64,000 nt of DNA from Candidatus Dormiibacterota bacterium (lineage in GTDB: Bacteria > Chloroflexota > Dormibacteria > Aeolococcales > Aeolococcaceae): the NCBI GenBank assembly GCA_963833055.1, contig CAWHWM010000004.1, forward strand, positions 391,643 through 455,642, read 5' to 3'. Below the pieces are notes generated by a model. The model ran no database searches. It saw only the letters and a program-made list of their open reading frames with translations, and was not told the origin of the DNA. Positions within the stretch are counted from its first letter, which is position 1. Each line of letters begins with the position of its first letter. Below are positions 1 through 18,760 of this stretch, in pieces. Made by a program: the position numbers and the translations under genes.

Positions 1-1
1 G

Positions 2-841
2 CACGCGGCGCGAACGCTCATCGACGCGGGGCTCGTCACGGTTGACGGCCGTCCGGGCAGGCCTGGACAGCGCATCCGCGAACGTGCTGACGTCGTGGTG
101 ACGCCGCCGGACGAGAAGGTTGCCGCAGCTGCGCGTGAGCGGAACCCAGGCGAGCCGGGGATCGAGTTGCGCATCGTCGATGAGGACGACTGGCTCGCCG
201 TCGTCGACAAGCCGTCCGGCATGGTGGTGCATCCCGCGCCGGGGCATCCCACCGGGACGCTCGCCGACGCGCTCAAGGAACGCGGGACCACCTGGTCGTT
301 GCTCGGCGGTGCGGAACGGGCAGGCATCGTGCACCGCCTCGACCGCGACACGAGCGGCCTGCTGGTCGTGGCCAAAACTGAGGCCGCGCACCGCAATCTT
401 GCCCGGCAGCTCAGCGACCGATCCCTCGGGCGCACGTACTGGGCGCTGGTCCACGGAGGGTTCCGTGAGGACACGGGGACGATCGACGCGCCGATCGCCC
501 GGCATCCGCGCGACCGTCGCCGAATGGCGATCGTCGAGGGAGGTCGTGAGGCGATGACGGACTTCCGCGTGGTGGAGCGGCTTGCAGGGGCCACCGTCCT
601 CGAGCTGTCCCTTCGCACCGGGCGCACGCATCAGATACGGGTGCATCTCGCATCGATCGGCCACCCGATCATCGGCGACTCCGTGTACGGACGGCCGGAT
701 CCGTTGCTCCACCGGCCCGCGTTGCATGCGATGCGGCTCCGGTTGCGCCATCCGGCCGACGGGTCGGAGCGGTCGTACGAGTCGCCGGTGCCGGATGAGC
801 TGGTGGCCGCGGCGAGCCGGCTCCGTCCGGCGGCTGTATGA
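2..841 (+). CDS. rluD: RluA-family 23S rRNA pseudouridine synthase (RluD-like); 5' end lies outside the window
   Basis: Reading frame is open from the window edge. S4-like stretch LIDAGLVTVDGRP, catalytic motif HRLDRDTSGLLVVAK, and C-terminal THQIRVHL. Confidence 0.85.
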   Translation, partial: HAARTLIDAGLVTVDGRPGRPGQRIRERADVVVTPPDEKVAAAARERNPGEPGIELRIVDEDDWLAVVDKPSGMVVHPAPGHPTGTLADALKERGTTWSLLGGAERAGIVHRLDRDTSGLLVVAKTEAAHRNLARQLSDRSLGRTYWALVHGGFREDTGTIDAPIARHPRDRRRMAIVEGGREAMTDFRVVERLAGATVLELSLRTGRTHQIRVHLASIGHPIIGDSVYGRPDPLLHRPALHAMRLRLRHPADGSERSYESPVPDELVAAASRLRPAAV

Positions 842-1133
842 GCGTGGTCGGCAGTGTGTGTGTTGACGCCGTGCGTTCGCGGTGAGATGGCGGTGTGAGC
901 GTGTCCAGCAGTGTGTTTCATAACGGCGCGAGCTTGTCGCGGGATGACGGTGTGAGCGTGCCCTGCGTTGTGTGTTTCTTGACGACGCGAGCCTGTCGTG
1001 GGATGACGGTGTGAGCGTGCCCTGCGTTGTGTGCGTGTTGACGGCGCGAGCCTGTCGTGGGATGACGGTGTGAGCGCGCCCGGCAGGTTCATCGTGTTGA
1101 CGGGGCCGAGTGGCTGTCGGCAAGGACACTGTG
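839..1133. repeat. 57-59 bp tandem array: 4 intergenic units plus a diverged fifth copy that is the gmk 5' end
   Basis: Units at 839-895, 896-952, 953-1011 and 1012-1070 each start TGAGCG and end GGTG. Units 3 and 4 are about 93% identical. Segment 1071-1133 (gmk start) aligns to the unit. Confidence 0.9.
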
Positions 1134-1658
1134 CTGCGGGAACTGTTCCAGCTCGATCCGGCGCTCACGTACTGCGTCTCGTACACCACGCGGCCGCCGC
1201 GTCCGGGGGAGATCGAGGGTGTGTCGTATTACTTCGTGGACGAGCCGACGTTCCGGTCGATGATCGATCGCGACGAGTTCTTCGAATGGTCGACCGTCTA
1301 CGGCGAGCTGAAGGGCCGGACGTTCGAGACCGTCAATAAGGCGATCGCCTCAGGCCGGGACACGGTGATCAAGATCGACGTCCAGGGAGCGGAGAAGGTT
1401 CGCGCCCGAGTGGGGGCACAGGGGACGTACATCTACCTGCTGCCACCGAGCCTCGAGGCACTGGAACAGCGCCTCGTCGAGCGCGCGACCGAGGATCCCG
1501 CCAGCCTTCGGGCTCGCAAGGAGCTGGCCGTCGCGGAGCTGGCCGTCAAGGACACGTACGATCATCAGGTGGTGAACGACGACGCACGGCGCGCGGCGCA
1601 GGAGATCGAGACGATCATCCAGGCCGTGCGGGCTGCCGGTGAGGGGGAGAAGGCATGA
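1070..1658 (+). pseudogene. gmk: Guanylate kinase with an apparent +1 frame disruption inside the P-loop (near 1115)
   Basis: GTG at 1070 gives VSAPGRFIVLTGPSG in frame 2. One extra nt follows, then VGKDTVLREL...VSYTTRPPRPGEIEGVSYYFV in frame 0 (ORF 1110-1658). Length is 589 nt (3n+1). Stop overlaps the coaBC ATG as ATGA. Confidence 0.8.
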
Positions 1659-2877
1659 CGCTGGAGCTCGAGGGCCATCGCGTCCTGGTCGGCGTCGGCG
1701 GCAGTGTGGCTGCGTTCAAGGCGTGCGAGGTGGTGACCGACCTGCGCCGCGATGGCGCCGAGGTGAGGGTCGCGATGACCGAGGCGGCAACGCGCTTCGT
1801 CACCCCGACCTTGCTGCGTGCGCTGAGCGGGCATCGGGTGGCGTCGAGCATGTGGGACGACGATCCCGAAGCCGGACACGGCATGAGCCACCTCGATCTC
1901 GCGTCGTGGTGCGAGGTGCAGGTGGTGGTGGCTGCGTCGGCCGACCTCCTCGCGCGGCTCGCGCTCGGGCTCGCCGGCGACCCGGTCACGGCGACGGCGC
2001 TCGCCTGTCGCGCTCCGTTGCTCGTGGCGCCGGCGATGGAATCGGCGATGTGGGAGCACCCGGCGACGCAGGGCCATGTGGCAACGCTCACCGCTCGGGG
2101 CGGCCGGATCATCGGTCCGGTGCACGGCAGGCTCGCGAGCGGTCACGAGAGCACCGGACGGATGGCCGAGCCCGATGCGATCGTTGCGGTGGTGAGGGAG
2201 TTCCTTGTCAGAGGGGCCTGACCCCAGACTTCTCCGGCCTGCGCTTCGTGGTCACCGCGGGAGGCACGCGGGAGCCGATCGACCCGGTGCGCTTCATCGG
2301 CAACCGGTCGAGCGGCAAGATGGGCAATGAGCTCGCCGCAGCCGCGATCCGCGAGGGCGCGGAGGTCACATTGATCACTGCCGCACCACCTCCGTCTGCG
2401 CAGGCGGGCCTCTCGGTGGTTGCAGTGGAAACAGCTGCCGACATGGACGCCGCCGTGCGCGCCGCGCTCCCCGGAGCGCGCGTGCTGATCATGGCTGCGG
2501 CGGTTGCCGACTGGCGCCCTCGCGATGTCGCAGGCCAGAAGCTCAAGAAGGGTGGGGAATCGATGAGCCTCGAGCTCGTGCCCACCATCGACATCCTTCG
2601 CGCACTCCGCGATGACGAGGTGGCGCGCGGTGTCTACATGGTCGGTTTCGCGGCCGAGACCGAGCACGTAATCGACAACGCGCGGGCGAAGCTCGATGCG
2701 AAGCATCTCGACCTGGTGGTCGTGAATGACGTGTCGCGCGAGGGCATTGGCATGGGGGCGGATGACAATGAGGTGACGGTGCTCGGCCGCGACGGGACGA
2801 TTGAGACCATTGCACGCGCGCCGAAATCTGTTGTGGCCGAGGCGATTGTGCGGATCATCGCGAGCAGGGTGCGATGA
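1655..2877 (+). pseudogene. coaBC: Bifunctional phosphopantothenoylcysteine decarboxylase/synthetase CoaBC, split by a -1 frame disruption near 2212-2220 (alternatively separate coaC and coaB)
   Basis: ORF 1655-2221 is the flavoprotein CoaC domain (VLVGVGGSVAAFKA). The frame of ORF 1639-2877 continues with the CoaB domain (FVVTAGGTREPIDPVRFIGNRSSGKMG). The junction lies at a GGGG run. Length is 3n+2. Confidence 0.8.
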
Positions 2878-3065
2878 CGTTGGGGTTTGCTGTCGGAGCG
2901 AATCGTGCGCGGGATTCTCTCAAGGCGTGGCCGTCTCGATGACGTTCGCATTTGCTATCGGAGCGAATCGTGCGCAGGACTTCTTGACGCGTGGCGGTCG
3001 CGATGACGTTTGCCTCTGTCGTGCCCGAAACGCGGTCACAGCTGCCGCGTGACGCGTACACGTAC
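2871..3065. repeat. 64-66 bp tandem array: 2 intergenic units plus the priA 5' end as a third diverged copy
   Basis: The block GATGACGTT recurs at 2873, 2938 and 3002, and TGACGCGT recurs near the unit ends. Each copy carries an ATG; ATGA overlaps occur at 2874-2877 and 2939-2942. Confidence 0.75.
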
Positions 3066-4995
3066 TCGATCCCTGACGACCTTGCCGAACTGGTGCTTCC
3101 CGGCGTGCGCGTCGAGATTCCGTTCGGCAAGCGATCGATCCTCGGGTACGTGGTGGAGCGAACGGAGGAGTCGGCGTTCGCGGAGGTCCGCGCCATCGAC
3201 GGCGTCATCGACGAACCGCGGCTCCTTCTCGATCACCACATCGCACTCGCGCGGCAGATCGCGGATCGGTACTGCGCGCCACTTGGCGAGGTGCTCCGGG
3301 CGATGCTGCCCAAGGGCGTGCGCACGCGCCCGTCGCGGCGCGCGGGTCCGCGGTCGATGTCACGCGCGGTTGCGGAGGCAGGCGCCGCCGGCCCACCGGA
3401 GCCGCCGCCGATCCTCAATGAGGCGCAACGCGCGGCGGTGGCGCCGCTGCTCGAGTCAATCGCGGCCCGCAAGCACCGCCGCGTCCTGCTCCACGGTGTG
3501 ACCGGGAGCGGGAAGACCGAGGTGTACCTCGCGGGCATCGATGCCGCCCTTGCGAAGGGGCGCGGCGCGATCGTCCTCGTACCCGAGATCGCGTTGACCC
3601 CGCAGATGATTCGCCGTTTCACCGTTCGATTTCCCGGGGCGGATTGCGGTGGTGCACTCGGCCCTCACGGACGCAGAGCGTGCGGCGGAGTGGCGGCGCA
3701 TCCGGAGCGGCGAGCACAGCGTTGTGATCGGCTCTCGCAGCGCCGTGTTCGCACCGGTGGCCGACCTCGGGATCGTTGTCGTCGACGAGGAGGACGCGCC
3801 TGCGTACAAGCAGGATCGCGTTCCGCGGTATCACGCCGTGGACGTCGCGTTGATGCTCGGCGCGCTGTGCGACGCGCCAGTCGTCATGGGAAGTGCGACC
3901 CCACGCGTCGAGAGTTTCTACCGCGCGCACACCGGTGATCTCGAGCTTGCCACGCTGCCGGAACGGGTGAGCGGCCGTCCGCTCCCACCGATCGAGGTGG
4001 TGGATCTGCGCGACGAGTTGCAGGCGGGCAACACCAACGCGCTGTCGCAGACCCTCGATCGTGCGCTGCAGGAATGTCATGCGGATGGCGGCCAGTCGAT
4101 CCTCTTTCTGAATCGCCGGGGCACCTCGACGGTGGTGCTGTGCCGCACGTGTGGCGAGGCACTGACCTGCACCAACTGCAGCGTGTCGTTGGTGCACCAC
4201 GTGGATCGCTCGAGCTGCGACTGCCACTACTGCGGGCTGTCGATCCCGCTGCCGAGTGCATGTCCGTCGTGCGGCTCGCGCACGATCCGCGCGCTCGGCA
4301 TGGGCACGGAGCGGCTCGAACGCGAGGTGCGCGAGCGGTTTCCGGCGCTCCGGCTCATCCGCATGGATCGCGACACCACGCGATCGCGCGACGCGTATTT
4401 CGACATCTATGACAAGTTCCGCCGCCACGAGGCGGACTGCCTCATCGGCACGCAGATGGTCGCGAAAGGATGGGATCTCGGCAATGTGCGTCTCGTCGGC
4501 ATCGTCAACGCCGATACGTCGCTCCACTTTCCTGACTATCGAAGTGGTGAGCTGACGTTCTCGCTGCTCACCCAGGTGGCCGGACGCGCCGGACGTGGCG
4601 ATGAGCCCGCGCGCGTGGTGCTCCAGACGTACAGCCCGGGTCACTACGCGGTCCGGCACGCCACCACGCATGACTATCTGGGGTTTGCGCGCGATGAGAT
4701 CCGCGTGCGCAAGGCACTGCGGTTTCCGCCGTACGCACGGCTCTGCGTCTGCACGTTCGTGCACAAGGAAGACCACGAAGCCGAGATCGAGGTTCGCCGG
4801 GAGGCCCAGCGAGTGTCTGATACACTCGGAATTGGCGACGGGCTCGATGTCCTCGGTCCGACGCCGGCGTTCCTCCACCGCCTGCGCGGCGAATACCGCT
4901 GGCAGTTCACGGTGCGGGGCAACAACATCGAGAGGGCATTTCCTCACCTTCCCAGGGCTCGGGGCTGGAGCATCGACGTCGACCCCGGGGCGTGA
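3003..4995 (+). pseudogene. priA: Primosomal replication-restart helicase PriA with a +1 frame disruption in the G-run at 3636-3639
   Basis: N-terminal ORF 2991-3938 carries Walker [12 protein letters not shown] and [13 protein letters not shown] 3649-4995 carries VVVDEE, Cys-rich zinc-finger motifs (CRTCGEALTCTNC, CHYCG, CPSCG) and the C-terminal domain. Length is 3n+1. GTG at 2991 is an alternative start. Confidence 0.85.
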
Positions 4996-5519
4996 ACGGA
5001 GAACACAGCGTGGCAGTCCTTCCCATCGTTCTGGTCTCGGACCACAACGACGTGCTCACCACCAAGGCAATCCGCGTGCCGCGGGTTGACGATGAGATAC
5101 GCCGTCTGATGGACGACATGGTTGAGACCATGTTCGACGCCAACGGCGTCGGCCTTGCCGCGCCGCAGGTGGGCGTGTCGCTGCGCGTCATCGTGCTGCG
5201 CGTCGACAACCAGATCTACCAGCTGGCCAATCCCGAGATGGTCCGGACCGACGGCGACCAGACCGGATACGAAGGATGCCTGTCGGTGCCCGGCTGGGTG
5301 GGGGAGGTGACCCGGCGGCAGCGCGTCGTCGCCAAGGGGCTCAACCGTCATGGCAAGGAGGTCCGGGTCAAGGGCGACGGGCTGCTGGCGCGGGCCGTGC
5401 AGCACGAGCTGGATCACCTGGACGGGATCCTCTTCACGAGCAGGGTGAACGAGGGAACGCTTCGCGAGGTCGAACCTGCAGAGGAGGCTGAGGAGCCCGG
5501 CGTCGTCAGCGCCGTGTGA
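4992..5519 (+). CDS. def: Peptide deformylase
   Basis: Motifs GVGLAAPQVG, EGCLSVPG and HELDHLDG. GTGA overlap with the priA stop. Confidence 0.9.
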   Translation: MNGEHSVAVLPIVLVSDHNDVLTTKAIRVPRVDDEIRRLMDDMVETMFDANGVGLAAPQVGVSLRVIVLRVDNQIYQLANPEMVRTDGDQTGYEGCLSVPGWVGEVTRRQRVVAKGLNRHGKEVRVKGDGLLARAVQHELDHLDGILFTSRVNEGTLREVEPAEEAEEPGVVSAV

Positions 5520-6436
5520 GGCTCGTCTTCTGTGGCACTGCGGCATTCGCGGTGCCGTCGCTCCGAGCGTGCGCTGCTGACCACGAGGTGCTCGCGGTGG
5601 TCACTCGGGCCGATCGACTGGGGAACCGGGGGAAGCCGGCGCCGCGTCCCATCGCCGATGCTGCGCATGAGCTCCGCCTGCCCGTCCTGATGCCGCCGAA
5701 GATCGGAGCCCCCGAGGTGGTGCGAGGCCTGGTCGACCTCATCCCGGATTGCGTGGTGGTCGCCGCGTACGGGCAGATCCTGCCGATCTCGCTGCTCGAC
5801 CCGCTGCCGTTCGGCGCGGTCAACGTGCACGCCTCGCTCTTGCCGCGCTGGCGGGGAGCGTCGCCGATCGCCCGGGCGATCCTCGCCGGCGACGCCGAGA
5901 CCGGCGTCTCGATCATGCGCATGGAGGCGGGGCTGGACACCGGACCGGTTTACGCGACGGTGAGGGTGCCGATCGACGATGACGCCACCACGCCGGCGCT
6001 CACGAGCGTGCTCGCGGATCTCGGCGCCGCAGAGCTTGCCGCGGTGCTCAGGGCGCTCGAACATGGAGAGGCAACCGCGACGCCGCAGCCGGAGGATGGC
6101 GTGACCTATGCGGCGCGGCTGACCCGCGAGGATGGACAGGTGGACTGGGCAGCCCGCAGTGCGGTCGAGGTCGATCGCATGGTGCGTGCCCTGCAACCGT
6201 GGCCGGGAGTGGTGGCGCCGATCGATGGTGTGGAGGTCCAGATCCAGGCAGGCGGACCCGTGAGCCCGAACCTGGGGCTGGCGCCAGGGAGCATTGCCGG
6301 CCGCCAGGGCGAATCCGTGGTCATCGCCACTCGCGACGGCGGGTATCGCGTGGACCGGATCACCCCGCCCGGCAAACGCGCCATGGCACCCGCGGCGTGG
6401 ATGCGCGGCCGGCGTGCCGGCGAGGCGCCTCGCTGA
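5516..6436 (+). CDS. fmt: Methionyl-tRNA formyltransferase
   Basis: MRLVFCGT N-terminus, NVHASLLPRWRGASPI motif, and a C-terminal Fmt domain. GTGA overlap with the def stop. Confidence 0.9.
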   Translation: MRLVFCGTAAFAVPSLRACAADHEVLAVVTRADRLGNRGKPAPRPIADAAHELRLPVLMPPKIGAPEVVRGLVDLIPDCVVVAAYGQILPISLLDPLPFGAVNVHASLLPRWRGASPIARAILAGDAETGVSIMRMEAGLDTGPVYATVRVPIDDDATTPALTSVLADLGAAELAAVLRALEHGEATATPQPEDGVTYAARLTREDGQVDWAARSAVEVDRMVRALQPWPGVVAPIDGVEVQIQAGGPVSPNLGLAPGSIAGRQGESVVIATRDGGYRVDRITPPGKRAMAPAAWMRGRRAGEAPR

Positions 6437-6900
6437 TGCCCCCCACACGAAAGCCGGGCGATGATCTCCTGGCGCACAACCGCCGGGCCCGCTACGAGTA
6501 CAGCATCGTGGAGTCGCTCGAGGCGGGCATCGAGCTCACCGGCACGGAGGTGAAGTCACTCCGCACGGGTCGCATCCAGCTGCGCGACGGCTACGTGCGG
6601 GTCGAGAACGGGCAGGCGTGGCTGATGCAGGTGAACATCGCCTCGTATCAGCACGGGAATCGGAACAACCCGGAGCCGGAGCGGCGCCGGCGTCTGTTGC
6701 TGCACAAGCGCGAGATCGAGTACCTGGACGGACGGGTGCGGACCCAGGGGCTGACGATCATTCCCCTGCGCCTCTACCTGGTGCGGAATCGGGTGAAGGT
6801 GGAGATCGGGCTTGCCCGAGGCAAGAAGCTCTGGGACAAGCGGCAGGACGTGGCCAAGCGTGATGCCGAGCGAGACATGGAGCGCGCGATCAAGCGCTGA
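6436..6900 (+). CDS. smpB: SsrA-binding protein SmpB
   Basis: NRRARYEYSIVESLEAGIELTGTEVKSLR and LLLHKREI motifs. The ATG at 6436 overlaps the fmt TGA by 1 nt. Confidence 0.9.
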   Translation: MPPTRKPGDDLLAHNRRARYEYSIVESLEAGIELTGTEVKSLRTGRIQLRDGYVRVENGQAWLMQVNIASYQHGNRNNPEPERRRRLLLHKREIEYLDGRVRTQGLTIIPLRLYLVRNRVKVEIGLARGKKLWDKRQDVAKRDAERDMERAIKR

Positions 6901-6918
6901 GTTGTCGCCGGTTGGCGT

Positions 6919-8142
6919 TCAGCCTGCCGCCGCGTGGAACTCGGCTTCGGGTGGGACGGCCTGCGATGCCGCACTCGGGCGGTTGGCCTTGATGTCCGGG
7001 ACGACCTGGGCGGCGAGCCCGTCGATGCGCTGGCGCAGCTCGCGAAGGCCGGTCCCGCGGGTGGCGCTCACCGCCAGTGCCGAGACCCCCGCGACATCGC
7101 CGAGGCGGAGCCGGGCGGTGCGCACCTCGGATGCTGTCAGGCGGTCGACCTTGGAGAGCGCAAGGATCATCGGCTGATCGCAGTCCATGGACCGAAGCGT
7201 GTCGAGCACGGTCACGAGCTGTTGCTCGGCGTCGGGATGGGATGCATCCACGACAAGGCAGAGCATGTGGGCCTGGCGCACCTCCTCGAGGGTCGCCGCA
7301 AAGGCTTCGACCAGCTCGGTCGGCAGCTTCTGGATGAAACCGACGGTGTCGGTGAGGATCACCAGCTTGCCGGAGGGCAGCTCGAGACGTCGCGAGGTGG
7401 GGTCGAGCGTCGCGAAGAGCAGATCGTCGGCCAGCACCTTGCTGTGGGTGAGGACGTTGAGCAGGGTGGACTTCCCGGCGTTCGTGTACCCCACCAGGGC
7501 GCACGACGCCAGCGGGACGTTGGTGCGTGCCGTGCGTCGCGTCCGCCGCTGCCGCTCGATCACGACGAGGCGCTCGCGCAGGCGCTTGAGCTGCTGGCGG
7601 ATCAGGCGCCGGTCGACCTCGATCTGCTTCTCACCAGGGCCGCCGCGAAGTCCCACACCACCTCGCTGCCGCTCCAGGTGGGACCACCCGCCGGCGAGGC
7701 GCGGCAGCAGATGCTCGAGCTGGGCCATCTCGACCTGCACGCGGCCTTCAGCGGTGATGGCCCGGCGGGCGAAGATCGCGAGGATCACCTCGGTGCGGTC
7801 GAGCACCGGCACGCCCCACTCCTCCTGGAGGTTGCGCTGCTGGCGCGGGGTGAGCTGGTCGTTGCAGAGCACCGCCGGGTATTCCAGCTCCGCGAGATGC
7901 GAAGCAAAGGCGGCGACGACACCCGATCGGAAGAACGTGGCGGGGTGCGGCTCGCGCAAGGAGATCAGGCTCCGCTCGAGGACCTCGGTGCCGAGCGTGC
8001 GAGCCAGCTCCTCGAGCTCGTCGAGCTCGATGTCACGCTGCTCGCGTTCGTCGCGGCTCGTGACGGTGCCGATGACGATGACCCGCTTGAGCTTCGTGCC
8101 GACTGCCGGGTCGGCTCCAGACGGCGCGTCGAAATGGGGCAA
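6919..8142 (-). CDS. hflX: GTPase HflX
   Basis: HflX N-terminal domain, then G1 GYTNAGKSTLLN and DTVGF. The start is a TTG at 8142, which is less certain. Confidence 0.88.
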   Translation of the reverse strand: MPHFDAPSGADPAVGTKLKRVIVIGTVTSRDEREQRDIELDELEELARTLGTEVLERSLISLREPHPATFFRSGVVAAFASHLAELEYPAVLCNDQLTPRQQRNLQEEWGVPVLDRTEVILAIFARRAITAEGRVQVEMAQLEHLLPRLAGGWSHLERQRGGVGLRGGPGEKQIEVDRRLIRQQLKRLRERLVVIERQRRTRRTARTNVPLASCALVGYTNAGKSTLLNVLTHSKVLADDLLFATLDPTSRRLELPSGKLVILTDTVGFIQKLPTELVEAFAATLEEVRQAHMLCLVVDASHPDAEQQLVTVLDTLRSMDCDQPMILALSKVDRLTASEVRTARLRLGDVAGVSALAVSATRGTGLRELRQRIDGLAAQVVPDIKANRPSAASQAVPPEAEFHAAAG

Positions 8143-8184
8143 CTAGCGGGTCACCGGCCGGTCCGTCACCTGGAGCATGCGATC

Positions 8185-8196
8185 AGCCTACCAATG
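8185..8196 (-). promoter_or_regulatory. Candidate extended -10 promoter element (TGGTAGGCT on the minus strand) upstream of hflX
   Basis: The minus strand reads CATTGGTAGGCT, about 43 nt upstream of the hflX start. The identical 12-mer recurs at 11048-11059 upstream of the MFS gene. Confidence 0.3.
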
Positions 8197-8250
8197 GCGC
8201 TCGCCGTCTGCTGCGCGGGGACGCCCCAATCACTTCATACACTTGACGCG

Positions 8251-9381: not shown

Positions 9382-9417
9382 GAGCAACGCACGGTACGGC
9401 CCGTACGCTGCGGAACG

Positions 9418-9756
9418 ATGAGCGACCAGTGCGTCGGCCCGATCGATCCCGCGACCGACTTACCCGCGGAGACCTGCCGTCAGCCGGCGATGAAGTTCCT
9501 GTTCTTTCCGCATCGGGACGGGGTCGCATTCATGCTCTGTTGCGACCGGCACCTCGAGAGCGTGAGCCGCTGGGCAGGGACCCGCTTTGGCGGCTGCTTC
9601 GCGGGCGGCCCGATGGCCAAGGGCCAACGCACGATGCAAGAGGCGGTGGAGCAGTTCGATCACATCGACTGGCCACATGCTGAGGCGTTTCATGCGCTCG
9701 TCCCTGCGTCGAAGGTGACGGACTTCCGCCACCGAGGCCGCCCCCGCCGCGGCTAG
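9418..9756 (+). CDS. Hypothetical protein (Cys/His-containing, 112 aa)
   Basis: ORF only; no family recognised. Fits between flanking genes with a 4-nt convergent overlap. Confidence 0.35.
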   Translation: MSDQCVGPIDPATDLPAETCRQPAMKFLFFPHRDGVAFMLCCDRHLESVSRWAGTRFGGCFAGGPMAKGQRTMQEAVEQFDHIDWPHAEAFHALVPASKVTDFRHRGRPRRG

Positions 9757-10991
9757 GGTGTCGCGGGTCCCGGAACCTTGAGCTGGATCACGACACTGCC
9801 GGCCACCGTGAGGCCGGCAGCGACAAGCACAGCGAAGGTCGGCGATATGCCGATGGCCGGTCCTGCGAGCGCGGACCCGATCGGGACGCCTGAGAAGTTC
9901 AACGCCATCGAGACGGCGAATGCCCGCCCGAACCATGCCCGAGCGGTTCGCCGTTGGCGGAGTGAAAAGGCGGGCACGCTCGATGCAGCATCGGCGCCAC
10001 CGGCGATCGCGATGCCCACCGCAATGAGCGCAATTGACGGCACGAGCAATACCAGCATCGAGAGACCCATCACCGCGCCGAGCAACGCCATCGCCTCGCG
10101 CTCGTGTCCCTCCGTCCGCAGGCGGCCCGTGATGAGTGCCGCGGGAACGCCGGTAGCGCCCGCGAGCGCCAGGATGGAACCGACGACGGCGGCATTGCCG
10201 TGCAGGTGGAAGACGACGACCGGGAGGGCGACGATCATGATGCCCCAGCCCACATTGAGCGTCGAGAACCCCACCGCGATCCAGCGTAACGTGCGATTGC
10301 TGACGACGTAGCAGAGGCCGCGCCAGGCTTCGTAGAAGATTCGGGAGGACACCTCGCCGGCGTGCGCGGGCTCAGCGACTCCCTGGAGCGCGATGGCGCC
10401 GACGACAAATCCGATCGCAGCTCCCACGAGGGCGGCTTCGCTGCCGACCAAAGCGATGAGCGCTCCCGCGAGTCCGGGACCGGCGATGCTCGAGACGCCA
10501 TAGAGGACGCTGTCGGCAGCATTGCCGCGATCCCACAGGTCGCGGGGCAGGATGAGCGGAAAGAACGAGCGCGCCCCCGCAATGCTGAGCGTGCTGGTCA
10601 GAGAACCGCCCACCAGCAATGCGTAGAGACCCCAGATGGGAAGGTGGTTCGTCAACGACAGCGTCACGATCGCGGAGAGGCACACCGCCGCAACGCTGAA
10701 GTCGAGCGTCATGAGCCGCTTGCGCCCGTGCCGGTCGAGCAGTGCGCCGGCGATCGGGCTCAGCAGCAACCCCGGAAAGATGAGCAGGAACAGGCTGACA
10801 CCCGCGACGCTCGGCGAGTGATATCGCTGCAGCGCGAAGAGCACCAACCCGACCGTCCACATCTGCGCCGCGGTGCGCGTGAGCAGCGAGCTCACGAGCA
10901 ACTGCCGGAAGCCGGGGACGCGCAGCATCCGCCCGTACGTCGCCGCGGGTGCGACGCCTTGTCCCGCGGTCACTGTGACGTCGCTGGACAT
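9753..10991 (-). CDS. MFS transporter (EntS/Mef-like MFS_3 type)
   Basis: Multi-span hydrophobic protein with an N-terminus typical of this family (FRQLLVSSLLTRTAAQMWTVGLVLFAL). ATG at 10991 is preferred over TTG at 11057 because a promoter-like element lies at 11048-11059. Confidence 0.8.
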   Translation of the reverse strand: MSSDVTVTAGQGVAPAATYGRMLRVPGFRQLLVSSLLTRTAAQMWTVGLVLFALQRYHSPSVAGVSLFLLIFPGLLLSPIAGALLDRHGRKRLMTLDFSVAAVCLSAIVTLSLTNHLPIWGLYALLVGGSLTSTLSIAGARSFFPLILPRDLWDRGNAADSVLYGVSSIAGPGLAGALIALVGSEAALVGAAIGFVVGAIALQGVAEPAHAGEVSSRIFYEAWRGLCYVVSNRTLRWIAVGFSTLNVGWGIMIVALPVVVFHLHGNAAVVGSILALAGATGVPAALITGRLRTEGHEREAMALLGAVMGLSMLVLLVPSIALIAVGIAIAGGADAASSVPAFSLRQRRTARAWFGRAFAVSMALNFSGVPIGSALAGPAIGISPTFAVLVAAGLTVAGSVVIQLKVPGPATP

Positions 10992-11047
10992 GCCGATTGG
11001 GTGGGGTTGCGGGCGCGCGAAGACGCCACGACGGAAAACACACGCCA

Positions 11048-11059
11048 AGCCTACCAATG
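11048..11059 (-). promoter_or_regulatory. Candidate extended -10 promoter element upstream of the MFS gene
   Basis: Same minus-strand 12-mer CATTGGTAGGCT as at 8185-8196. It lies about 57 nt upstream of the ATG at 10991. Confidence 0.3.
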
Positions 11060-11130
11060 CGCCGGGATCTGGTGGGACGCGACGCGGTATGATCGTTGTG
11101 CACGCTGATCTCGGACAGCTGCGTTCCCAT

Positions 11131-11505
11131 GGGGGCGTACTGGTTTCGACGGGGTCGTGGGTTGTGCGAATGCGAGTCGAGCCCCGGGCTCGTAAAACCG
11201 GGAAAAATATACGTGCGAATAACGCACCCCTCGCCCTCGCTGCGTAAGTAGCAGAGACGAAAAAAGCTCAGGCTTCGGCCTGACGTCGACCGGCCCCTCG
11301 GCTGTGGGGGTCGGACCCGACGTTAATGCAAGCAGTCTCGCCGCCCGGTGGCGCCTCGGCGCCGGGCGGGACATTCACCGAGGCTGGCCGCAGCCGAGCC
11401 TGGTCCCAGGGCGCGATTGAGGTGAGATAAAAACCGGGACTACACTCGTAGATGTCGCATGGAACGCGGCTTCGGACCCGGGTTCGATCCCCGGCGCCTC
11501 CACCA
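11131..11505 (+). ncRNA. ssrA: tmRNA (SsrA), tag peptide ANNAPLALAA
   Basis: 5' GGGGGCGTACTGGTTTCGACGGGG and 3' GGTTCGATCCCCGGCGCCTCCACCA. The acceptor stem GGGGGCG/CGCCTCC contains a G3:U pair. Tag ORF is GCG AAT AAC GCA CCC CTC GCC CTC GCT GCG TAA at 11215-11247. Confidence 0.95.
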
Positions 11506-11563
11506 CGGTGGTTTGCTACCGAGAGTTGTACGGGTCCGAAAGAGGCCCAGATCGGCGATCTCG

Positions 11564-11690
11564 GCCGGCTGAGACGCAAGCTGCCTGCGGACCGCGTGCT
11601 GGTCGACGCCGGCTGAGCCGCAAGCTGCTTGCGGCCGTGTGCTAGCCGACGCCGGTTTGAGCCGCATATTTGGCACTGATGAGCGTGACG
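11564..11690. repeat. 43-44 bp tandem repeat, about 3 units, the last embedded in the 3' end of the minus-strand lipoprotein gene
   Basis: Units at 11564-11607, 11608-11650 and 11651 onward each start GCCGG(C/T)T(T)GAG. Unit 2 contains the hairpin GCCGCAAGC-T-GCTTGCGGC (11617-11635) and the gene's stop codon. Confidence 0.7.
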
Positions 11691-12839
11691 AGCCCCGAGG
11701 GCGTCACTGAGAAGGTTCTTTCACCGAAGTAATCGGTTGCGATCAGGACGTCTTCCGGCGTCCAGAGCGTTGGGGCCAGGTTGTCGTTACCGGGGACGAC
11801 CAGGGTGTGGCCGCTCGCTCGATCGAGCAGGACGAGTTGGGTCCCAGTTGCCGTTGCGGGGCACGAGATGGAGACCGCCGCGTACATGGCATCGGCGGAT
11901 AACGCCACGCCTCCGTTGATGCAGGACGGTGACGTCATTCCCGGGATGCTGTCTTCGGTCTGCGTGCCGTCAGGTGTGACGAACCGAATCCCCGGAGACG
12001 CGCCCCCAAGGGAGCAGGCGATGGTCCCGTCGTCGGCGATGTCCTGGAAACTGCAGTCTGTTCCGATCCGACCGGCGAGACCGGTGGCCGCGCCCGTCGC
12101 GGGATTGATGAGTATGGCCGGTGAGGTCGACAGAGTCGAAGCACCGAGAGCGCCGCACTCGTTGTCGCCGGACACCACGATGCCGGCAGCCGTCCACGCC
12201 GCTAGGCTGGCCTCGGTGACGTCAGCGCCGAAGGACACACGCGCAAGCATTTGCGCTCCACTGCCCTCGTCGATGTACACGTCCAACGCCGCTCCAACCG
12301 AGGACCCGCAGTTGGGCGAGTTGGTTTGCTCCGCCCACGCCCATGCTTGCCCATCATCGCGTCCAATCACTGACGGCGATCCGACGATGTTCGACTCGAG
12401 GGTCGCGAGGGTGCCATCTGCAGAGATGGCGACGATGGAAACCGGGCCGTCTGACCCGCTCTGCTGGCCGTCGGTGCCGATCATTCGAGCACCAAGCGGT
12501 CCGTCGATTGCCAGTGTCGCGTCACCGTCGATGATCGGCCCCGACGGCAAGGGAGCAGTGATCGTTCCGTTTGCCAGCATCAGCACAGCGTTCCCATTGC
12601 CGAGGGTCCCGCCGCCGGGGAGCTGGTTGTCGCCGAACCCGACGAAAAGCGGTTCGAACGAGTTGACTACCGTCGCCGGGGAAGGTGTCGCAGCCGACGC
12701 GCTTGTCGGTATCGGTGAGAACTGTCGGCGCTCCTGTCGGTTGAGAAGTTGGCGATCCTGTCGCTAACGAGGTCCCCGTTCCGCATGCCGACAGTGCAGC
12801 TGCGCTGGCGATCACGAGGGCCGTTCGTTGGATCCGCAT
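11642..12839 (-). pseudogene. Secreted lipoprotein of unknown function with a +1 frame disruption between signal peptide/linker and body
   Basis: ATG at 12839 is preceded by AAAGGAA. Signal peptide MRIQRTALVIASAAALSACG has a lipobox, followed by an S/T/P linker. The body (ORF 11642-12586) extends upstream in another frame as SPIPTSASAATPSPATVVNS. Length is 3n+1. Confidence 0.6.
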
Positions 12840-12951
12840 CGAGTGGTTCCTTTCGTTCTTCAGAGTGTGCATGCGGAACCAGCATCGCTTCGCTTGGGTT
12901 ACGGTGATCGGTTGGAACTGGCGGCTGCCACGTGATTCGATGAGTCCCTCT

Positions 12952-12973
12952 GCCTCGTGACGCGTCACGAGGC
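12952..12973. promoter_or_regulatory. Perfect 22-bp palindrome in the divergent lipoprotein intergenic region (candidate operator)
   Basis: GCCTCGTGACG|CGTCACGAGGC was read directly from the sequence. It lies between the divergent starts at 12839 (-) and 13059 (+). Confidence 0.5.
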
Positions 12974-13058
12974 TGGAGCTTTCGTGCGGCAACGTCGATG
13001 GCTTGGTGCGATCGCATAACCAGGGTTCCTGCGCCGTCGTTTCAGGGCGAGAAGAGCC

Positions 13059-14333
13059 ATGAAGCTTCACGAAACGGCTCGGGCGCGATCGAGCGCAAAC
13101 ATTGGGACGAGCTCCGGACAGGGTCTGCTCTCGACACTTCCACGCGTTGCGTTTCTGTTGGTTGCGGCGGTTTTGGTGTCGTGCAGCAGCGCGGCCGTGT
13201 CGCGACACACTCGCCTTCGCCAAGCAGTACCGCGACCACGGCTCCCGTCTCGACCTCGACGCCGTCGCTCACCCCGGCGCCCACGCTCACCCCGACGCCG
13301 TCCCCGGCAGCGCCTTCCGGCTTTCGGCCGCTTTCACTGACGTTTGTGAGCGCAACCGATGGCTGGGTGCTTGGGACTGGCGCATGCGCCGATTCGTGCG
13401 TGTGGATCTACCACACAACCAACGGAGGCGCGAGCTGGACGAGGAGCGGCGCGCCACCTGCAACGTTCCCCTCGACGGGTTGCTATTGACGCGACGGGCC
13501 CATGCGTCGACACGCTGCGCTTCGCCACCCCGGAGCTCGGATTCGCGTTCGGCATCAACTGGGGGGCTGTTTACAGGACAGACGACGGCGGAACCACATG
13601 GACTCTCATGCCTGTCACGGATGTCAGCGCGATTGCCCTGGTGGGAGATGACGCGCTGCGGCTGCAGGCGGCCGACGGTGGCTGCAGTACCGGGGAATGC
13701 CAGCTCAAACGGAGCACGGACGGAGGCATCATCTGGTCAACTGCGGACCAACCGGTGTTGACGCCGGAAGGGCTCCTGGGCGACGTCTTTCTGCAAAGCG
13801 ATGGGCATGCGTACATGGTGGGCTACGGCAATCCAGCCGGCGGTGGACCAGAGACTGCGGAGCTGTACCGGTCGAGCAACTTCGGGGCGACATGGACCCT
13901 TGGCAGCGATCCGTGCGCGAATGGCTCGCCCGGCCGGCCGATCACTGTAGGCGTCGACGCATCCGCGGCGGGTGTTCTTGGTATCGAGTGTCTTGCCAAC
14001 CTCGGTGATAGTCAGCGTGGATTCGTGCTCGTGTCCACTGACGGCGGTGCACACTTCGGCCCCCCGCACGCGTCACCACCGTCGTTTCAGGTCTTTGCAA
14101 TCGGATCGGCGTCGGTCCTCGCGGAGGCGACGTCCGCCGGCCTGTCGGTGAGCCATAACGGCGGTGTGACCTGGGCGTCCACGTACACGTGTCCAGTTGA
14201 GAACAAGGGAGACAACGGCATCCAGTTCGTTGGGTTCGAGTCTGCGAGTGTCGCCCATCTCATCTGCGGCAACGCCATCGCGCGCAGCACTGACGGCGGA
14301 CTCAAGTGGAGTACGTACACGTTCCCCAGTTGA
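13059..14333 (+). pseudogene. BNR/Asp-box repeat beta-propeller lipoprotein (Ycf48/sialidase-like fold) with two compensating frame disruptions
   Basis: Lipobox signal AFLLVAAVLVSCSS is in frame 0. The S/T/P linker and first BNR repeat (HTTNGGASWTRS) are in frame 2. Remaining repeats (RTDDGGTTWT, STDGGIIWST, SSNFGATWT, STDGGAHF, HNGGVTWAS, STDGGLKWS) are in frame 0. Shifts lie near 13190-13200 (-1) and 13463-13480 (+1). Confidence 0.7.
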
Positions 14334-14427: not shown

Positions 14428-14444
14428 TGGTGGTGGGAGGACTG

Positions 14445-15622: not shown

Positions 15623-16054
15623 ATGAGGGACGTGGCGAACGATGCTGACGGTCCCCTGAGCAGCCGCCGTGAGACTGTCGCAACCGCGATCGTCGCCAGC
15701 TGGGACGCCGGCACGCGCTACGCCTCAGAACGCTATATGGCCCACGGGCGTCCGGGCGATCGTGCTCGCGGGCAGTGTGGAGCGACGGCCTTGGTCGTAC
15801 AGGATCTGCTCGGAGGCGATCTCCTCATGGGCGACGTGCTGGTCGGATCCGAGCGTCTCGGCGTGCACTACTGGAACCGGCTCGCGGACGGCGAGACCCT
15901 CGACTTGAGCAGCAGGCAGTTCGTGGAAGGCGAGGTGATTGCAGGCGCCCGCATCGTCCACCGGCCGGCGGAGGTGCCCGTACATGGCGCGGAGGCGTAC
16001 CTGCTCTTGCGCGAGCGGGTGAAGCGGTTGCTCGCCGCGGACGGCATTCCCTAA
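15623..16054 (+). CDS. Hypothetical protein (possibly YunG-like)
   Basis: ORF with ATG at 15623. It contains GVHYWNRLADGETLDLSSRQF, which I recall loosely from YunG-type proteins. The assignment is weak. Confidence 0.4.
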   Translation: MRDVANDADGPLSSRRETVATAIVASWDAGTRYASERYMAHGRPGDRARGQCGATALVVQDLLGGDLLMGDVLVGSERLGVHYWNRLADGETLDLSSRQFVEGEVIAGARIVHRPAEVPVHGAEAYLLLRERVKRLLAADGIP

Positions 16055-16106
16055 CTCCCCAAGAGTTGCTTGCAGGTTAAGTGGCCGCCGTGCCATACTC
16101 CCAAAC

Positions 16107-16673
16107 ATGTCTTTGGAGGTTGGCCGGCAGCAGCTGCGAGCGCTCTCCCATCCGCTCCGGGTGCGCATCCTTTCGCTCCTGACCGGGAGGGCGATGTCGA
16201 GCGCAGAGCTCGCCCGCGAGCTCGACATGCGCCATGCGGCGGTGAGCTTCCACGTGCGGCAACTGGCCGCCGCGGGATACCTCGAGCTCGTTGAGACGCG
16301 GTCGGTGCGCGGCGGTCAGGAACGCTGTTACCGCACGCGCGCGGCGGGCCAGGCGGAGTGGTCGCAGGAGGATCCTCGCCTGGTCATCCGCGCGGTCGGG
16401 GAGGAGGTCTCACGCCGCGCGGCGGACTCGCCTCCCAAGGCGTGGCGCCTGTTCGGTGACGCGGAGCTCTGGGTCGATCCGGCGGTCTGGGACGACACGG
16501 TGAAGCGGATCACGGCTGCGATGAATGACCTGCATGCGGCTGCGCTGGAGCCACGGACGCCGGAGGCGAAGCACGTGAGCGCGACGACCATGCTGTTCGC
16601 GATTGAGCCGGGCGGGCTTGGAGAGCCTGACGGGATGGATCCGGGCGCGCCGGCGACGCACGCATGCGGTTGA
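16107..16673 (+). CDS. ArsR-family winged-helix transcriptional regulator with a C-terminal extension
   Basis: LRALSHPLRVRILSLL...SSAELARELDMRHAAVSFHVRQLAAAGYLE. Confidence 0.8.
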   Translation: MSLEVGRQQLRALSHPLRVRILSLLTGRAMSSAELARELDMRHAAVSFHVRQLAAAGYLELVETRSVRGGQERCYRTRAAGQAEWSQEDPRLVIRAVGEEVSRRAADSPPKAWRLFGDAELWVDPAVWDDTVKRITAAMNDLHAAALEPRTPEAKHVSATTMLFAIEPGGLGEPDGMDPGAPATHACG

Positions 16674-16770
16674 TCCCAGCGCGCCAGCAACGCGACATGC
16701 GATCGACGCGGGCGCGCCAGAGACGCAGAACGCGAGCGACCAGGTCGCGCCAAAGAAGCAGAAGCGATGA
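16638..16770. repeat. 33-34 bp tandem array (4 clear units) spanning the arsR stop to the MFS start
   Basis: Units at 16638-16671, 16672-16704, 16705-16737 and 16738-16770 have consensus GA(T/C)C..G.CGCGCC.G..ACGC....GCGA. Adjacent units are 67-71% identical by hand count. The first unit ends in the arsR TGA and the last in the MFS ATGA. Confidence 0.8.
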
Positions 16771-18011
16771 GCAACGGGTCCGGGCGGAGGCGCGGACCGC
16801 TCGCGCACCGCAACTTCCAGCTGCTGGTCGGCTGCGACGTCACGTCGATGGTCGGCACCGCGATGGCCACTGTTGCGGTGCCGTTTGCGGTGTTGAAAAG
16901 TGGTGGCTCCGTCAGCGATGTCGGCTATGTCGCCGCCGCCGGACTGTTGCCCACGGTGGTGTTTCTGCTCTTCGGCGGAGTGGTCGCGGACCGCCTCCCG
17001 CGTCAGCGCGTCATGGTCGTGGCCAATATCGCGCAGGGACTGGCACAGGCCGGGTTTGCCGCGCTGGTGCTCACGGGGAGCGCGCAACTCTGGGAGATGA
17101 TGCTGCTGACCGCGGCTCGTGGGAGCGCGTTCGGCATGTACATGCCTGCCGCGCAAGGGCTCCTTCCGCAAACGGTGGATGCGGACCAACTCGCGTCTGC
17201 GAACGCGGTGCGCCGGGTGGGTCTCAACAGCGCGCAGATCGGTGGTGCCGCGCTCGGCGGCCTGGTGGTCGCCGTGGTCGGACCGGGGTGGGGTCTCGTC
17301 GCGGACGCCGCGAGCTATGCGATCGCCGGCGCTCTGCGCGCTGGAATGCGCTTCACCAACCTCCCGCCGATTGTGCGAACCGGCGTCATCAACGAACTTC
17401 GCGACGGATGGCACGCGTTCACCTCGCGCCGCTGGCTCTGGATCATCGTTGTGCAATTCGGCGTGGTCAATGCCATCTACGTCGGAACGTTCAGCGTGCT
17501 CGGCCCCGCGATCGCAGACCACAAACTCGGTGGGGCAGCGAGCTGGGGACTGATTGTCGCGGCGCAATCGGCCGGTGCAGTCATCGGCGCGGCACTCATG
17601 CTCCGGTATCGACCGGTGCGACTGCTCAACGCGGCCAGCCTCGCGGTGCCGCTCCTCGGGCTGCCGCTGTTCGCGCTTGCGGTTCCGCTCGTCGTCCCGC
17701 TGATCGCGCTCGCCGCACTCCTGGCCGGCATCGGCAGCGAGGTGTTCGAGGTGAACTGGAGCACTGCAATCCAGGAACAGATTCCACCCAACCTGCTCTC
17801 TCGCGTCGCTGCCTACGACGCGCTCGGCTCCTACGCGCTGAGCCCGATCGGCACCACCGTCGCCGGCCCGCTTGCGCTCGTCATCGGCACAGCGACCACG
17901 TTGATGGCCGGCGGCTTCGTCATCGTCATCTCAGCCCTGGTCGTCATCGGGGCGTCAGACATACGAAATCTGACCCGTGTGGCGAGCCGCGCCGGTACCA
18001 CGAGCACTTGA
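16767..18011 (+). CDS. MFS transporter (EntS/Mef-like MFS_3 type)
   Basis: The 414-aa product appears to have 12 TM segments. The N-terminus HRNFQLLVGCDVTSMVGTAMATVAVPF and the loop motif GGVVADRLPRQRVM fit this family. Confidence 0.85.
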   Translation: MSNGSGRRRGPLAHRNFQLLVGCDVTSMVGTAMATVAVPFAVLKSGGSVSDVGYVAAAGLLPTVVFLLFGGVVADRLPRQRVMVVANIAQGLAQAGFAALVLTGSAQLWEMMLLTAARGSAFGMYMPAAQGLLPQTVDADQLASANAVRRVGLNSAQIGGAALGGLVVAVVGPGWGLVADAASYAIAGALRAGMRFTNLPPIVRTGVINELRDGWHAFTSRRWLWIIVVQFGVVNAIYVGTFSVLGPAIADHKLGGAASWGLIVAAQSAGAVIGAALMLRYRPVRLLNAASLAVPLLGLPLFALAVPLVVPLIALAALLAGIGSEVFEVNWSTAIQEQIPPNLLSRVAAYDALGSYALSPIGTTVAGPLALVIGTATTLMAGGFVIVISALVVIGASDIRNLTRVASRAGTTST

Positions 18012-18079
18012 CCGGGTTGGCTCGATGCACATGAGTCAGCGCTGATCCCGGGTGACCGGTCGACGGCCCTGACGCCGAA

Positions 18080-18544
18080 TTGGGGTATGGCATCGGGGAC
18101 AATGTGCGGATGGCGCTTCGCGAGGACACGCCTCAAGAGCGTGTCAATGCCGAGTGCCGGCGTCGCGGAGCCGATGTGTTCGTGTCCCGCTGCGTCGAGG
18201 TGCTGAATGGTCGCGACGTCGATGACGCCTTTCTGCACGTGCTGGGAGGGCCGCACGCGGCGCAGGTCCTGAGCGGAGCAGAGGGTGGCAGGCACGGCTA
18301 CTGGCCGCGGGTCTGGGCGACGCGCGGGTTGCTCTACGCCTGGGATGCATCGGCGACGGACGTCTTGATCGCGGCGACGGACGATGCCGCGTGGCGAGTC
18401 CGGGAGATGGCTGCCAAGGTCATCGCGCGCCACCGTGTCGGGGAGGCGCTGAATGCGGTTGCTGCGCTGCAGCACGACCCCGTTGCGAGGGTGCGTGCAG
18501 CCGCCGAACGGGCTGTGCGCATTCTCGCCGCTTCCCGCGCCTGA
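18080..18544 (+). CDS. HEAT-repeat-like hypothetical protein
   Basis: Repeated helical motifs (WRVREMAAKVIARH, DPVARVRAAAERAVRIL). Confidence 0.5.
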   Translation: MGYGIGDNVRMALREDTPQERVNAECRRRGADVFVSRCVEVLNGRDVDDAFLHVLGGPHAAQVLSGAEGGRHGYWPRVWATRGLLYAWDASATDVLIAATDDAAWRVREMAAKVIARHRVGEALNAVAALQHDPVARVRAAAERAVRILAASRA

Positions 18545-18568
18545 TTCTGGTTCGTGTGGCTGTACGCG

Positions 18569-18760
18569 GTGCGAACAGTGTGGTGGGCTACTTGCGACGG
18601 TGCGCTGTGCGAACGCGAGTAGCTACATGCGGGCCGTGGGATCTGCGAATGCGAATAGCTACATGCGGCCGTCCGCTCTGCGAACGCGATTAGCTACAGC
18701 GGCCGTCCGCTCTGCGAACGCGAGTAGCTACATGCCACCGTCCGCTCTGCGAACAACTTC
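18569..18760. repeat. 34-38 bp tandem array, about 5.5 units, each containing the palindrome GTAGCTAC
   Basis: Units start at 18569, 18607, 18643, 18678, 18712 and 18747 (partial). Units 3 to 5 are about 89% identical, and the leftmost units are more diverged. There are no unique spacers between units. Confidence 0.85.

Follow-up and report, generated by a model that had tools for sequence, protein, structure and literature searches.

The locus described here raises the question of why five unrelated tandem arrays, each situated at the end of a gene, lie within 19 kb of one bacterial contig. The stretch of DNA analyzed, called the window below and always meaning the full 64 kb, is part of contig CAWHWM010000004.1 of a Candidatus Dormiibacterota bacterium and contains 68% G+C; the nearest proteins to its methionyl-tRNA formyltransferase come from metagenome-assembled genomes of Candidatus Dormibacterota. 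An initial annotation, made from the sequence alone, had proposed that the five arrays share one geometry, reflect directional, repeated duplication at gene boundaries, and form an undescribed class of element, with MIRUs, the interspersed repetitive units of mycobacteria (reportedly described by Supply et al. in 1997 and 2000), as the nearest analogue. We found that duplication at gene boundaries has indeed occurred repeatedly, the units being copies of the flanking gene ends, but that no new class of element is involved: the arrays are locally derived minisatellites, or variable-number tandem repeats (VNTRs). Our preferred explanation, to which we assign a probability of about 0.7, is that the five arrays arose independently by slippage-type duplications that were filtered by selection.

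The window was searched with Tandem Repeats Finder (TRF) and with an ungapped tandem self-similarity scan (periods 24 to 200, z ≥ 6, ~0.01 chance hits expected). The scan returned exactly six arrays in the 64 kb, namely the five at gene ends, numbered here in order of position, and a 189-bp repeat at 62860-63477. The arrays in the window, which consist of head-to-tail units, have z values of 6.6 to 11.5 and are beyond chance. TRF detected four of the arrays, at 882-1081 (59 bp, 3.4 copies), 11564-11666 (44 bp, 2.3 copies), 16679-16767 (33 bp, 2.7 copies) and 18587-18754 (35 bp, 4.8 copies); array 2 (2874-3067) was too diverged for TRF and was recovered by the self-similarity scan (z = 8.3). 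The positions and unit lengths given by the initial annotation were confirmed by these searches, and the five units have no mutual similarity, in agreement with its view that the arrays are unrelated and independent. Its statement that the other 45 kb contain no array held for non-coding DNA but not for coding DNA. The 189-bp repeat, found by the self-similarity scan and by translation, lies on the minus strand in an open reading frame (ORF) at 62908-63651 and comprises three in-frame copies of a 63-residue two-helix membrane module (…GGYALNWxWTGFQGNTLWDWL…). This ORF has no Pfam match, and the repeat is an ordinary protein-internal repeat.

Anchoring of the arrays at gene ends

Arrays 1 and 2 are located at stop/start junctions of the rluD-priA operon on the plus strand. 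The 3' part of an rluD-like pseudouridine synthase gene (95-841, plus strand; Pfam PseudoU_synth_2, with an orthologue in relatives) ends in a TGA at 839-841 that overlaps an ATG at 838 (ATGA), and this overlap marks the first unit of array 1. Array 1 (838-1128; TRF, self-similarity scan and alignment) contains four extra units of 57, 57, 59 and 59 nt (838-894, 895-951, 952-1010 and 1011-1069), followed at 1070-1128 by the gene's own copy, which is the beginning of the guanylate kinase gene gmk (1070-1658, plus strand; GTG start at 1070; Pfam and alignment). Each unit combines ~14 nt from the end of rluD with the NTGA overlap and ~45 nt from the start of gmk. Compared with the related loci L001, L002 and L005, array 1 is a 232-bp insertion. 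The rluD-gmk spacing is 280 nt in the window versus 43-116 nt in relatives, 56 related loci sharing the commonest value, and the rluD/gmk junctions of relatives, read directly, are bare ATGA or GTGA overlaps.

Array 2 (2874-3067, plus strand; self-similarity scan and alignment) is built in the same manner at the coaB/priA junction. Its two extra units, at 2874-2938 (65 nt) and 2939-3002 (64 nt), precede the gene's own copy, which begins at the priA ATG at 3003 (priA, 3003-4995, plus strand; Pfam and alignment), and a unit is composed of ~10 nt of the coaB 3' end, ATGA and ~55 nt of the priA 5' end. The array is a 129-bp insertion relative to L001, L002, L005 and L169, and the junction is a bare 4-nt overlap in ~55 related loci. 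The comparison of orthologous junctions in relatives, which the initial annotation had suggested for reconstructing the order of duplications, thus revealed bare overlaps at both rluD/gmk and coaB/priA; for array 5 it pointed to newer copies near the gene, as described below.

Array 4 (16638-16771, plus strand; self-similarity scan and alignment; four units of 33-35 nt) is associated with an ArsR-family regulator gene (16107-16770, plus strand; Pfam; ORF 16603-16770), the stop of which overlaps the start ATG of an MFS_3 transporter gene (16767-18011, plus strand; Pfam) as ATGA. The ArsR frame meets an apparent stop at 16671-16673 only because of an extra G at ~16662. Without this base the ArsR frame crosses array 4 to the ATGA at 16767-16770, the MFS_3 start, and the intact allele ends in a tail of 11-codon repeats (DPGAPATHHAV, DPGAPATRHAI, DAGAPHMQSAS and DKVAPKKQKR); the window's own ORF at 16603-16770 encodes the same tail. 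In L168, an independent Joint Genome Institute (JGI) contig with a 97% identical ArsR, array 4 is complete, in frame and without the extra G. Because the frame of L168 runs through the array, array 4 is an in-frame coding repeat and is not intergenic. The number of units among ArsR homologues is zero (P0122 and P0123), ~2 (P0125) or four (the window and P0121), and further members of the family carry repetitive tails of unrelated sequence. L169 lacks array 4 as well as array 2.

Arrays 3 and 5 consist of copies of the 3' ends of minus-strand genes. Array 3 (11545-11666, minus strand; TRF and scan; 44-nt units, 2.3 copies) has a gene-proximal copy in which a minus-strand ORF at 11642-12586 ends, with its final codons and its TAG (11642-11644); in the distal copies CAG replaces TAG, and these copies carry a GCCGCAAGC/GCTTGCGGC hairpin, the unit containing a palindrome with a 9-bp stem. 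Array 5 (18540-18754, minus strand; TRF, scan and alignment) contains six units of 34-38 nt, running on the minus strand from V0 (18753-18719), the gene's copy, through V5 (18575-18540). Each unit includes the last ~8 codons, the TAG and ~8 nt of a 61-aa zinc-ribbon-like CxxC...CxxC gene (18728-18913, minus strand; identified by translation and conserved in L002 and L169, with no Pfam match), and V0 is the true end of this gene (GTT CGC AGA GCG GAC GGT GGC ATG TAG). From V0 to V5 the units decay progressively away from the gene, and V5 abuts the stop of a HEAT-repeat gene (18080-18544, plus strand; Pfam and synteny). Three assemblies of a related species (L169-171) with the same gene order have 2-3 copies at this locus versus six in the window. 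Window unit V4 looks orthologous to the distal copy of L169, which indicates that the newer copies of array 5 adjoin the gene.

All five arrays are therefore anchored at a gene terminus, and to this extent the shared geometry proposed initially was upheld. The geometry is not uniform, however, and comprises stop/start overlaps (arrays 1 and 2), minus-strand 3' ends (arrays 3 and 5) and a coding tail (array 4). A uniform extension of the copies toward lower coordinates, which had also been proposed, had to be given up: it mixes plus-strand copies of 5' ends with minus-strand copies of 3' ends, and four or five cases out of five are not significant. That the copies farthest from the gene are the most diverged is clear for array 5 and is seen in array 2 (identities of 83, 75 and 66%), but does not apply to array 1, in which neighboring units are 80, 86, 93 and 78% identical, with no gradient and with the youngest pair internal.

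We evaluated the anchoring statistically together with arrays from relatives. In 960 kb of related Dormibacterota loci, the same scan detected ~10 distinct arrays, or ~1 per 80-100 kb. Twelve of the 14 arrays from the window and relatives overlap the stop codon of a long ORF with high G+C at third codon positions (GC3), against 2.9 expected, and none of 5000 random placements in a permutation test reached 12. The arrays in relatives include 55-nt copies of the hflX 3' end (L016, 15114-15238), a 31-nt copy of the 3' end and stop of a minus-strand gene (L031, 17317-17396), an in-frame 33-nt repeat at the C terminus of a sigma factor (L005, 15652-15808; L005/L010), and, at the coaB/priA ATGA junction again, a 26-nt duplication of independent origin (L014, 5740-5804, and L129). 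Since the arrays of relatives are anchored at gene termini too, a general filter is indicated. Inspection of the duplication breakpoints by eye gave only 4-6-nt matches (GGCTGT and CGCG), which are uninformative at 68% GC.

We propose the following origin for the arrays. A duplication of 33-65 nt would arise through slipped-strand or microhomology-mediated misalignment and would span a gene end by chance. Duplications inside genes would break them, and those leaving both genes intact would persist, a step that the permutation test supports; the tolerated duplications would be those that span a stop codon, span a stop/start overlap, or add whole codons to a disordered or dispensable tail. Anchoring at termini would follow because neighboring genes overlap by 4 nt, so that only duplications spanning the ends keep both frames. 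Two copies would then expand and contract like any VNTR, as the copy-number differences between strains and species show, with the selected gene copy remaining constant, new copies appearing beside the gene and older ones decaying outward. It is probable that the arrays themselves serve no selected function. A mechanism targeted at stop/start overlaps is not needed: only two of the five arrays, arrays 1 and 2, lie at such overlaps, which also speaks against the common directional or strand-specific mechanism primed at these overlaps that the initial annotation had considered.

Mini-ORF chains and the local density of arrays

The NTGA motif is kept in all units of arrays 1 and 2. In array 1, mini-ORFs at 838-885, 887-898, 895-1014 and 1011-1073 form a chain that leads to the gmk GTG at 1070, every stop overlapping or abutting the following start, and in array 2 a mini-ORF at 2874-2942 stops on the next ATGA. 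A complete chain is also present in L172, a Logan short-read contig with a 98% identical gmk, where a single additional unit of 61 nt separates the rluD ATGA from the gmk GTG, versus four extra units in the window. The duplicated junction of L014 (ATGA-MTLTTGRPQ-ATGA) likewise is a complete relay. By turning the spacer into such a chain, the extra ATGA or GTGA units could let ribosomes leaving the upstream gene reach the downstream one through repeated termination and reinitiation, a route also proposed for MIRUs.

A duplication that spans an NTGA overlap necessarily copies one start and one stop codon, and a mini-ORF will stop on the next NTGA only if the unit length is 2 mod 3. The youngest units, of 59, 65 and 26 nt, all have this property, the chance of which is ~1/27 (p ~ 0.04); the evidence for a 2-mod-3 rule is anecdotal and only suggestive. 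A targeted search of all 172 loci found L014/L129 as the only additional junction duplication.

MIRUs are head-to-tail units of 40-100 bp that lie in operons and are co-oriented with the genes, each with a small ORF whose start and stop overlap the flanking stop and start by 4 nt, which suggests translational coupling. Arrays 1 and 2 and the L014 junction resemble them, the chain of overlapping mini-ORFs being complete in array 1, L172 and L014 and incomplete in array 2. Like MIRUs, array 1 is strain-variable in copy number (four versus one extra unit). In a review that describes MIRUs (PMC12548453), the stop/start overlap geometry is taken to minimize what the insertion does to translation downstream. 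The co-oriented position within an operon is found only for array 1 (rluD/gmk) and array 2 (coaB/priA); arrays 3 and 5, in contrast, lie in convergent spacers, and array 4 is coding. MIRUs moreover form a dispersed, presumably mobile family whose consensus recurs at ~40 loci, whereas here each array has its own unit and the host belongs to Dormibacterota, not Mycobacterium. The choice of MIRUs as nearest analogue is thus apt in a functional sense for arrays 1 and 2 but fails for arrays 3, 4 and 5 and finds no counterpart to the dispersed consensus.

It is conceivable, though we think it unlikely, that the junction arrays are "proto-MIRUs", in which a raised rate of junction duplication in this Dormibacterota lineage, combined with selection for 2-mod-3 lengths, has turned ordinary gene ends into self-contained translational-relay modules that keep termination-reinitiation coupling. 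If so, copy-number-variable modules could tune the stoichiometry of essential operon genes, the arrays would show the birth of MIRU-type elements, and the frame rule could be tested across prokaryotic genomes. The mini-ORF chains at ATGA junctions offer a plausible local source of MIRU-type repeats and give a hint of how MIRU-like relays could form anew through junction duplication.

Several observations weigh against our explanation by slippage and selection. The relay is imperfect: the second unit of array 2, of 64 nt, gives a mini-ORF (2939-3052) that overruns the priA start by 49 nt, the older units of array 1 are 57 nt long and the L172 unit is 61 nt long, so that the 2-mod-3 rule has three events behind it. 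Of the window units, U0 matches the spacer unit of L172 best, at 74% identity, and the flanks are 97-98% identical; a difference of 26% versus 2-3% in the flanks implies turnover faster than simple neutral decay. The assembly of the window contains at least five single-base insertions relative to relatives, none of them in a homopolymer, and independent confirmation is limited to array 4, the array 5 locus and, for array 1, the presence of extra units but not their number. The density of arrays is also high. Five arrays within 19 kb is ~20-fold more than in relatives, with a probability of ~1e-5 for five or more arrays at the relatives' rate, and the selection filter leaves this density unexplained. 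Nor does the filter give an account of why all five lie in the first 19 kb; the corresponding probability, (19/64)^5 = 0.002, was calculated post hoc.

The density would be accounted for if the duplications at gene boundaries were made by a mutational process particular to the region or the lineage (for example error-prone break repair, replication restart or a slippage hotspot dependent on replication direction) and selection had a minor part. The regional clustering of the arrays is real, and borderline tandem similarities (z of 5 to 6) are also more frequent in the first 19 kb. Two lineages acquired separate duplications at the coaB/priA junction, and the rapid turnover of spacer units relative to their flanks also fits such a process. 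The stretch 1-19 kb has a positive GC skew (0.057) and the remainder of the window one close to zero (0.012), a difference in favor of this process that no evidence ties to the arrays. However, the arrays are of three geometric kinds and occupy two unrelated settings, a conserved essential operon and a variable segment adjoining the transfer-messenger RNA (tmRNA) gene. The arrays of relatives, which lie elsewhere, are terminus-anchored as well, no repair or recombination gene or sequence motif common to the five sites was found, and the clustering statistic is post hoc. We consider it rather improbable that a mutational process dominates over selection, but a lineage-wide or regional rise in slippage may have contributed.

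More doubtful still is that the arrays are selected functional elements, the relays tuning rluD:gmk and coaB:priA translation, the ArsR tail tuning the regulator, and the 3' arrays acting as terminator or stability elements. Retention of NTGA in every unit of arrays 1 and 2, the intact relays of L172 and L014 and the 2-mod-3 lengths of the youngest units would agree with selection on the junctions, as would, for array 4, its inclusion in the ArsR reading frame of the intact allele and the repeated evolution of repetitive tails in the ArsR family. Against this, ~55 relatives manage with bare overlaps, the units decay with distance from the gene, and one relay is broken (array 2, unit 2). The units show no conserved peptide, and an Rfam search of the whole window at the gathering threshold gave the tmRNA as its sole match, with no structured RNA family in the arrays. 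No terminator-like sites were found in the arrays, arrays 3 and 5 included, and a terminator or promoter function of the arrays was rejected on this ground.

Single-base insertions and the reality of the arrays

The single-base insertions were located by alignment on the plus strand in gmk (1114-1115, an extra base that breaks the frame in the P-loop codons, GGC[T]GTCGG, at array 1's right edge), coaB (2226) and priA (3629, where the frame is broken), and by comparison with L168 in the plus-strand ArsR gene (the extra G at ~16662). Comparison with relatives placed another in a MarR-like gene (36825), and there are probable further insertions at ~12600 in a lipoprotein gene and at ~13480 in a BNR gene. 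L172, the 98%-identical strain, has an intact 195-aa gmk without the extra base. Because near-identical strains have intact gmk and ArsR genes, the insertions are best read, on these sequence comparisons, as errors of a noisy long-read assembly. Pseudogenization was rejected as their default explanation: near-identical strains keep both genes intact, and every difference is an insertion of 1 nt, the positions being scattered across the window. The case carries a warning for annotation: through 1-nt errors in the assembly, a coding repeat passed for intergenic DNA and essential genes seemed to be broken.

If the assembly is noisy, the arrays could themselves be stuttered or mis-polished repeats, as the initial annotation had recognized in naming re-assembly as a means of refuting its proposal. 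We consider this very unlikely, even though the insertions break essential genes in the window and the related assemblies L170 and L171 are likewise frameshift-ridden. Array 4 is complete in the independent JGI contig L168, a duplicated unit is present at the array 1 locus in the independent Logan contig L172, and the array 5 locus is duplicated identically in L169-171 despite very different error loads; noisy L170 and L171, moreover, show no extra arrays compared with L169. The array copies differ mostly by substitutions, with 1-5% indels, and share derived changes, a pattern unlike read noise. The loci of arrays 1, 4 and 5 are thus real and variable in copy number, and for these three the concern about re-assembly is answered by independent assemblies. 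Exact-protein look-ups with def, coaC, the zinc-ribbon protein and the HEAT protein gave no match. Scans of genome and metagenome contigs found no locus identical to that of the window, the best being 92% identical in coaC and 86% in gmk.

Known repeat classes and neighboring genes

Comparison with bacterial VNTRs, or minisatellites, which arise by slipped-strand mispairing, showed no difference in kind. As in VNTRs, the units are in tandem and 26-65 nt long, copy number differs between close strains or species (arrays 1, 4 and 5), similarity is highest among internal units and decay greatest at the edges, array 4 repeats in frame within a protein tail that is disordered, and the units are derived locally and are missing from orthologous loci of relatives. 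What is unusual is the local density and the near-universal seeding from a gene terminus. An apparent new class of element is thereby reduced to a simple, testable rule, and the new contribution is a set of examples from an uncultured phylum together with a statistical demonstration of terminus anchoring. The arrays are candidate VNTR markers for strain typing in this uncultured soil phylum.

Animal mitochondrial genomes offer a conceptual parallel only. Some of their spacers are reported to stem from tandem duplication of adjacent gene ends (PMC5370444 and PMC5585954), so that a compact genome contains boundary spacers that are decaying tandem copies of a neighboring gene end; the genetic system and mode of replication are different, and such spacers are not known to have stop/start overlap relays.

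The repetitive extragenic palindromic elements (REPs) and bacterial interspersed mosaic elements (BIMEs) of proteobacteria also occur at gene 3' ends in convergent spacers. Some stand in tandem, and they fold into hairpins, as the array 3 unit does. REPs are dispersed families with hundreds of copies, mobilized by the REP-associated tyrosine transposase (RAYT). In contrast, the units of arrays 3 and 5 each copy the 3' end of the gene beside them and occur at one locus, and only the array 3 unit is palindromic. A CRISPR array was rejected, as the units abut head to tail without spacers. The arrays are therefore not MIRUs, REPs or CRISPRs. Least probable of all the explanations, and already largely refuted, is a dispersed or mobile family of MIRU, REP/BIME or miniature inverted-repeat transposable element (MITE) type inserting at start and stop codons: arrays 1 and 2 share the intercistronic position, orientation and overlapping mini-ORFs of MIRUs, and the array 3 unit has a palindrome as in REPs, but the five units are mutually dissimilar, none was met at a further locus, either in the window or among those related loci that were compared, and each aligns to the ends of its own flanking genes.

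A gene map of the first 20 kb was built from Pfam matches and synteny with relatives. Between gmk and priA lie coaC (flavoprotein; 1655-2221) and coaB (DFP; ~2205-2877), both on the plus strand and assigned by Pfam and synteny. The two genes usually form a single fused coaBC gene. In the clade of L001-L007, coaC (188 aa) and coaB (223 aa) are separate genes with a 17-nt overlap, and a coaBC frameshift was rejected for the window, the genes being separate and overlapping throughout the clade. Downstream of priA are def, fmt and smpB on the plus strand, followed by hflX on the minus strand (all by Pfam and synteny). Divergence from L002 in 1-11500 is strongly mosaic from gene to gene: at the protein level priA (C-terminal part), def, smpB and hflX are 97-99% identical, gmk and fmt reach 82-83%, and coaB 75%. 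This may reflect recombination or very uneven constraint.

Between hflX and a minus-strand MFS gene (Pfam and synteny), a plus-strand segment of ~1.5 kb (8213-9769) encodes an EryCIII-like glycosyltransferase; it is absent in L001, L002, L005 and L169. The MFS gene lies between this segment and the tmRNA gene (11131-11505, plus strand; Rfam), which is a classic type of site for genomic islands. A 197-aa "gene" called in relatives (L002, 14020-14613, minus strand) runs into the tmRNA gene and has probably been miscalled. Homology to L002 is lost after the tmRNA 3' end, which is the left edge of the variable segment 11506-18748. This segment and that at 18984-34115 are missing from L002, which after its tmRNA gene has an FAD monooxygenase and then homologues of 18749-18983 and of 34116 onward; by this comparison, the two segments are lineage-specific insertions beside the tmRNA gene. 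We rejected the idea that arrays 3 and 5 are att-site scars flanking the tmRNA-adjacent segment, as their units copy the 3' end of the adjacent gene and array 5 is present in a species with the same gene order.

Within the variable segment, the ORF that ends in array 3 (11642-12586, minus strand) belongs to a putative secreted lipoprotein gene, identified by translation, with a signal peptide in the ORF at 12522-13223; the gene is probably frameshifted near 12600, and the ORF at 11642-12586 has no Pfam match. A plus-strand BNR-repeat gene follows (Pfam and synteny). Beyond the zinc-ribbon-like gene, an opp-type ABC transporter operon extends from 18956 on the minus strand (Pfam and synteny). 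The order ArsR, MFS_3, HEAT, zinc ribbon and opp is common to L169-171, and the variable segment is partly shared with L169.

Two further features of the window were noted. A tRNA-Gln(CTG) was called by ARAGORN at 60224-60316, with no Rfam tRNA match at the gathering threshold; at 93 nt it is long for bacteria. A borderline 43-nt tandem similarity (16048-16133, z = 5.3) extends across the ArsR start codon at 16107 and may be an old, decayed duplication or a set of operator repeats.

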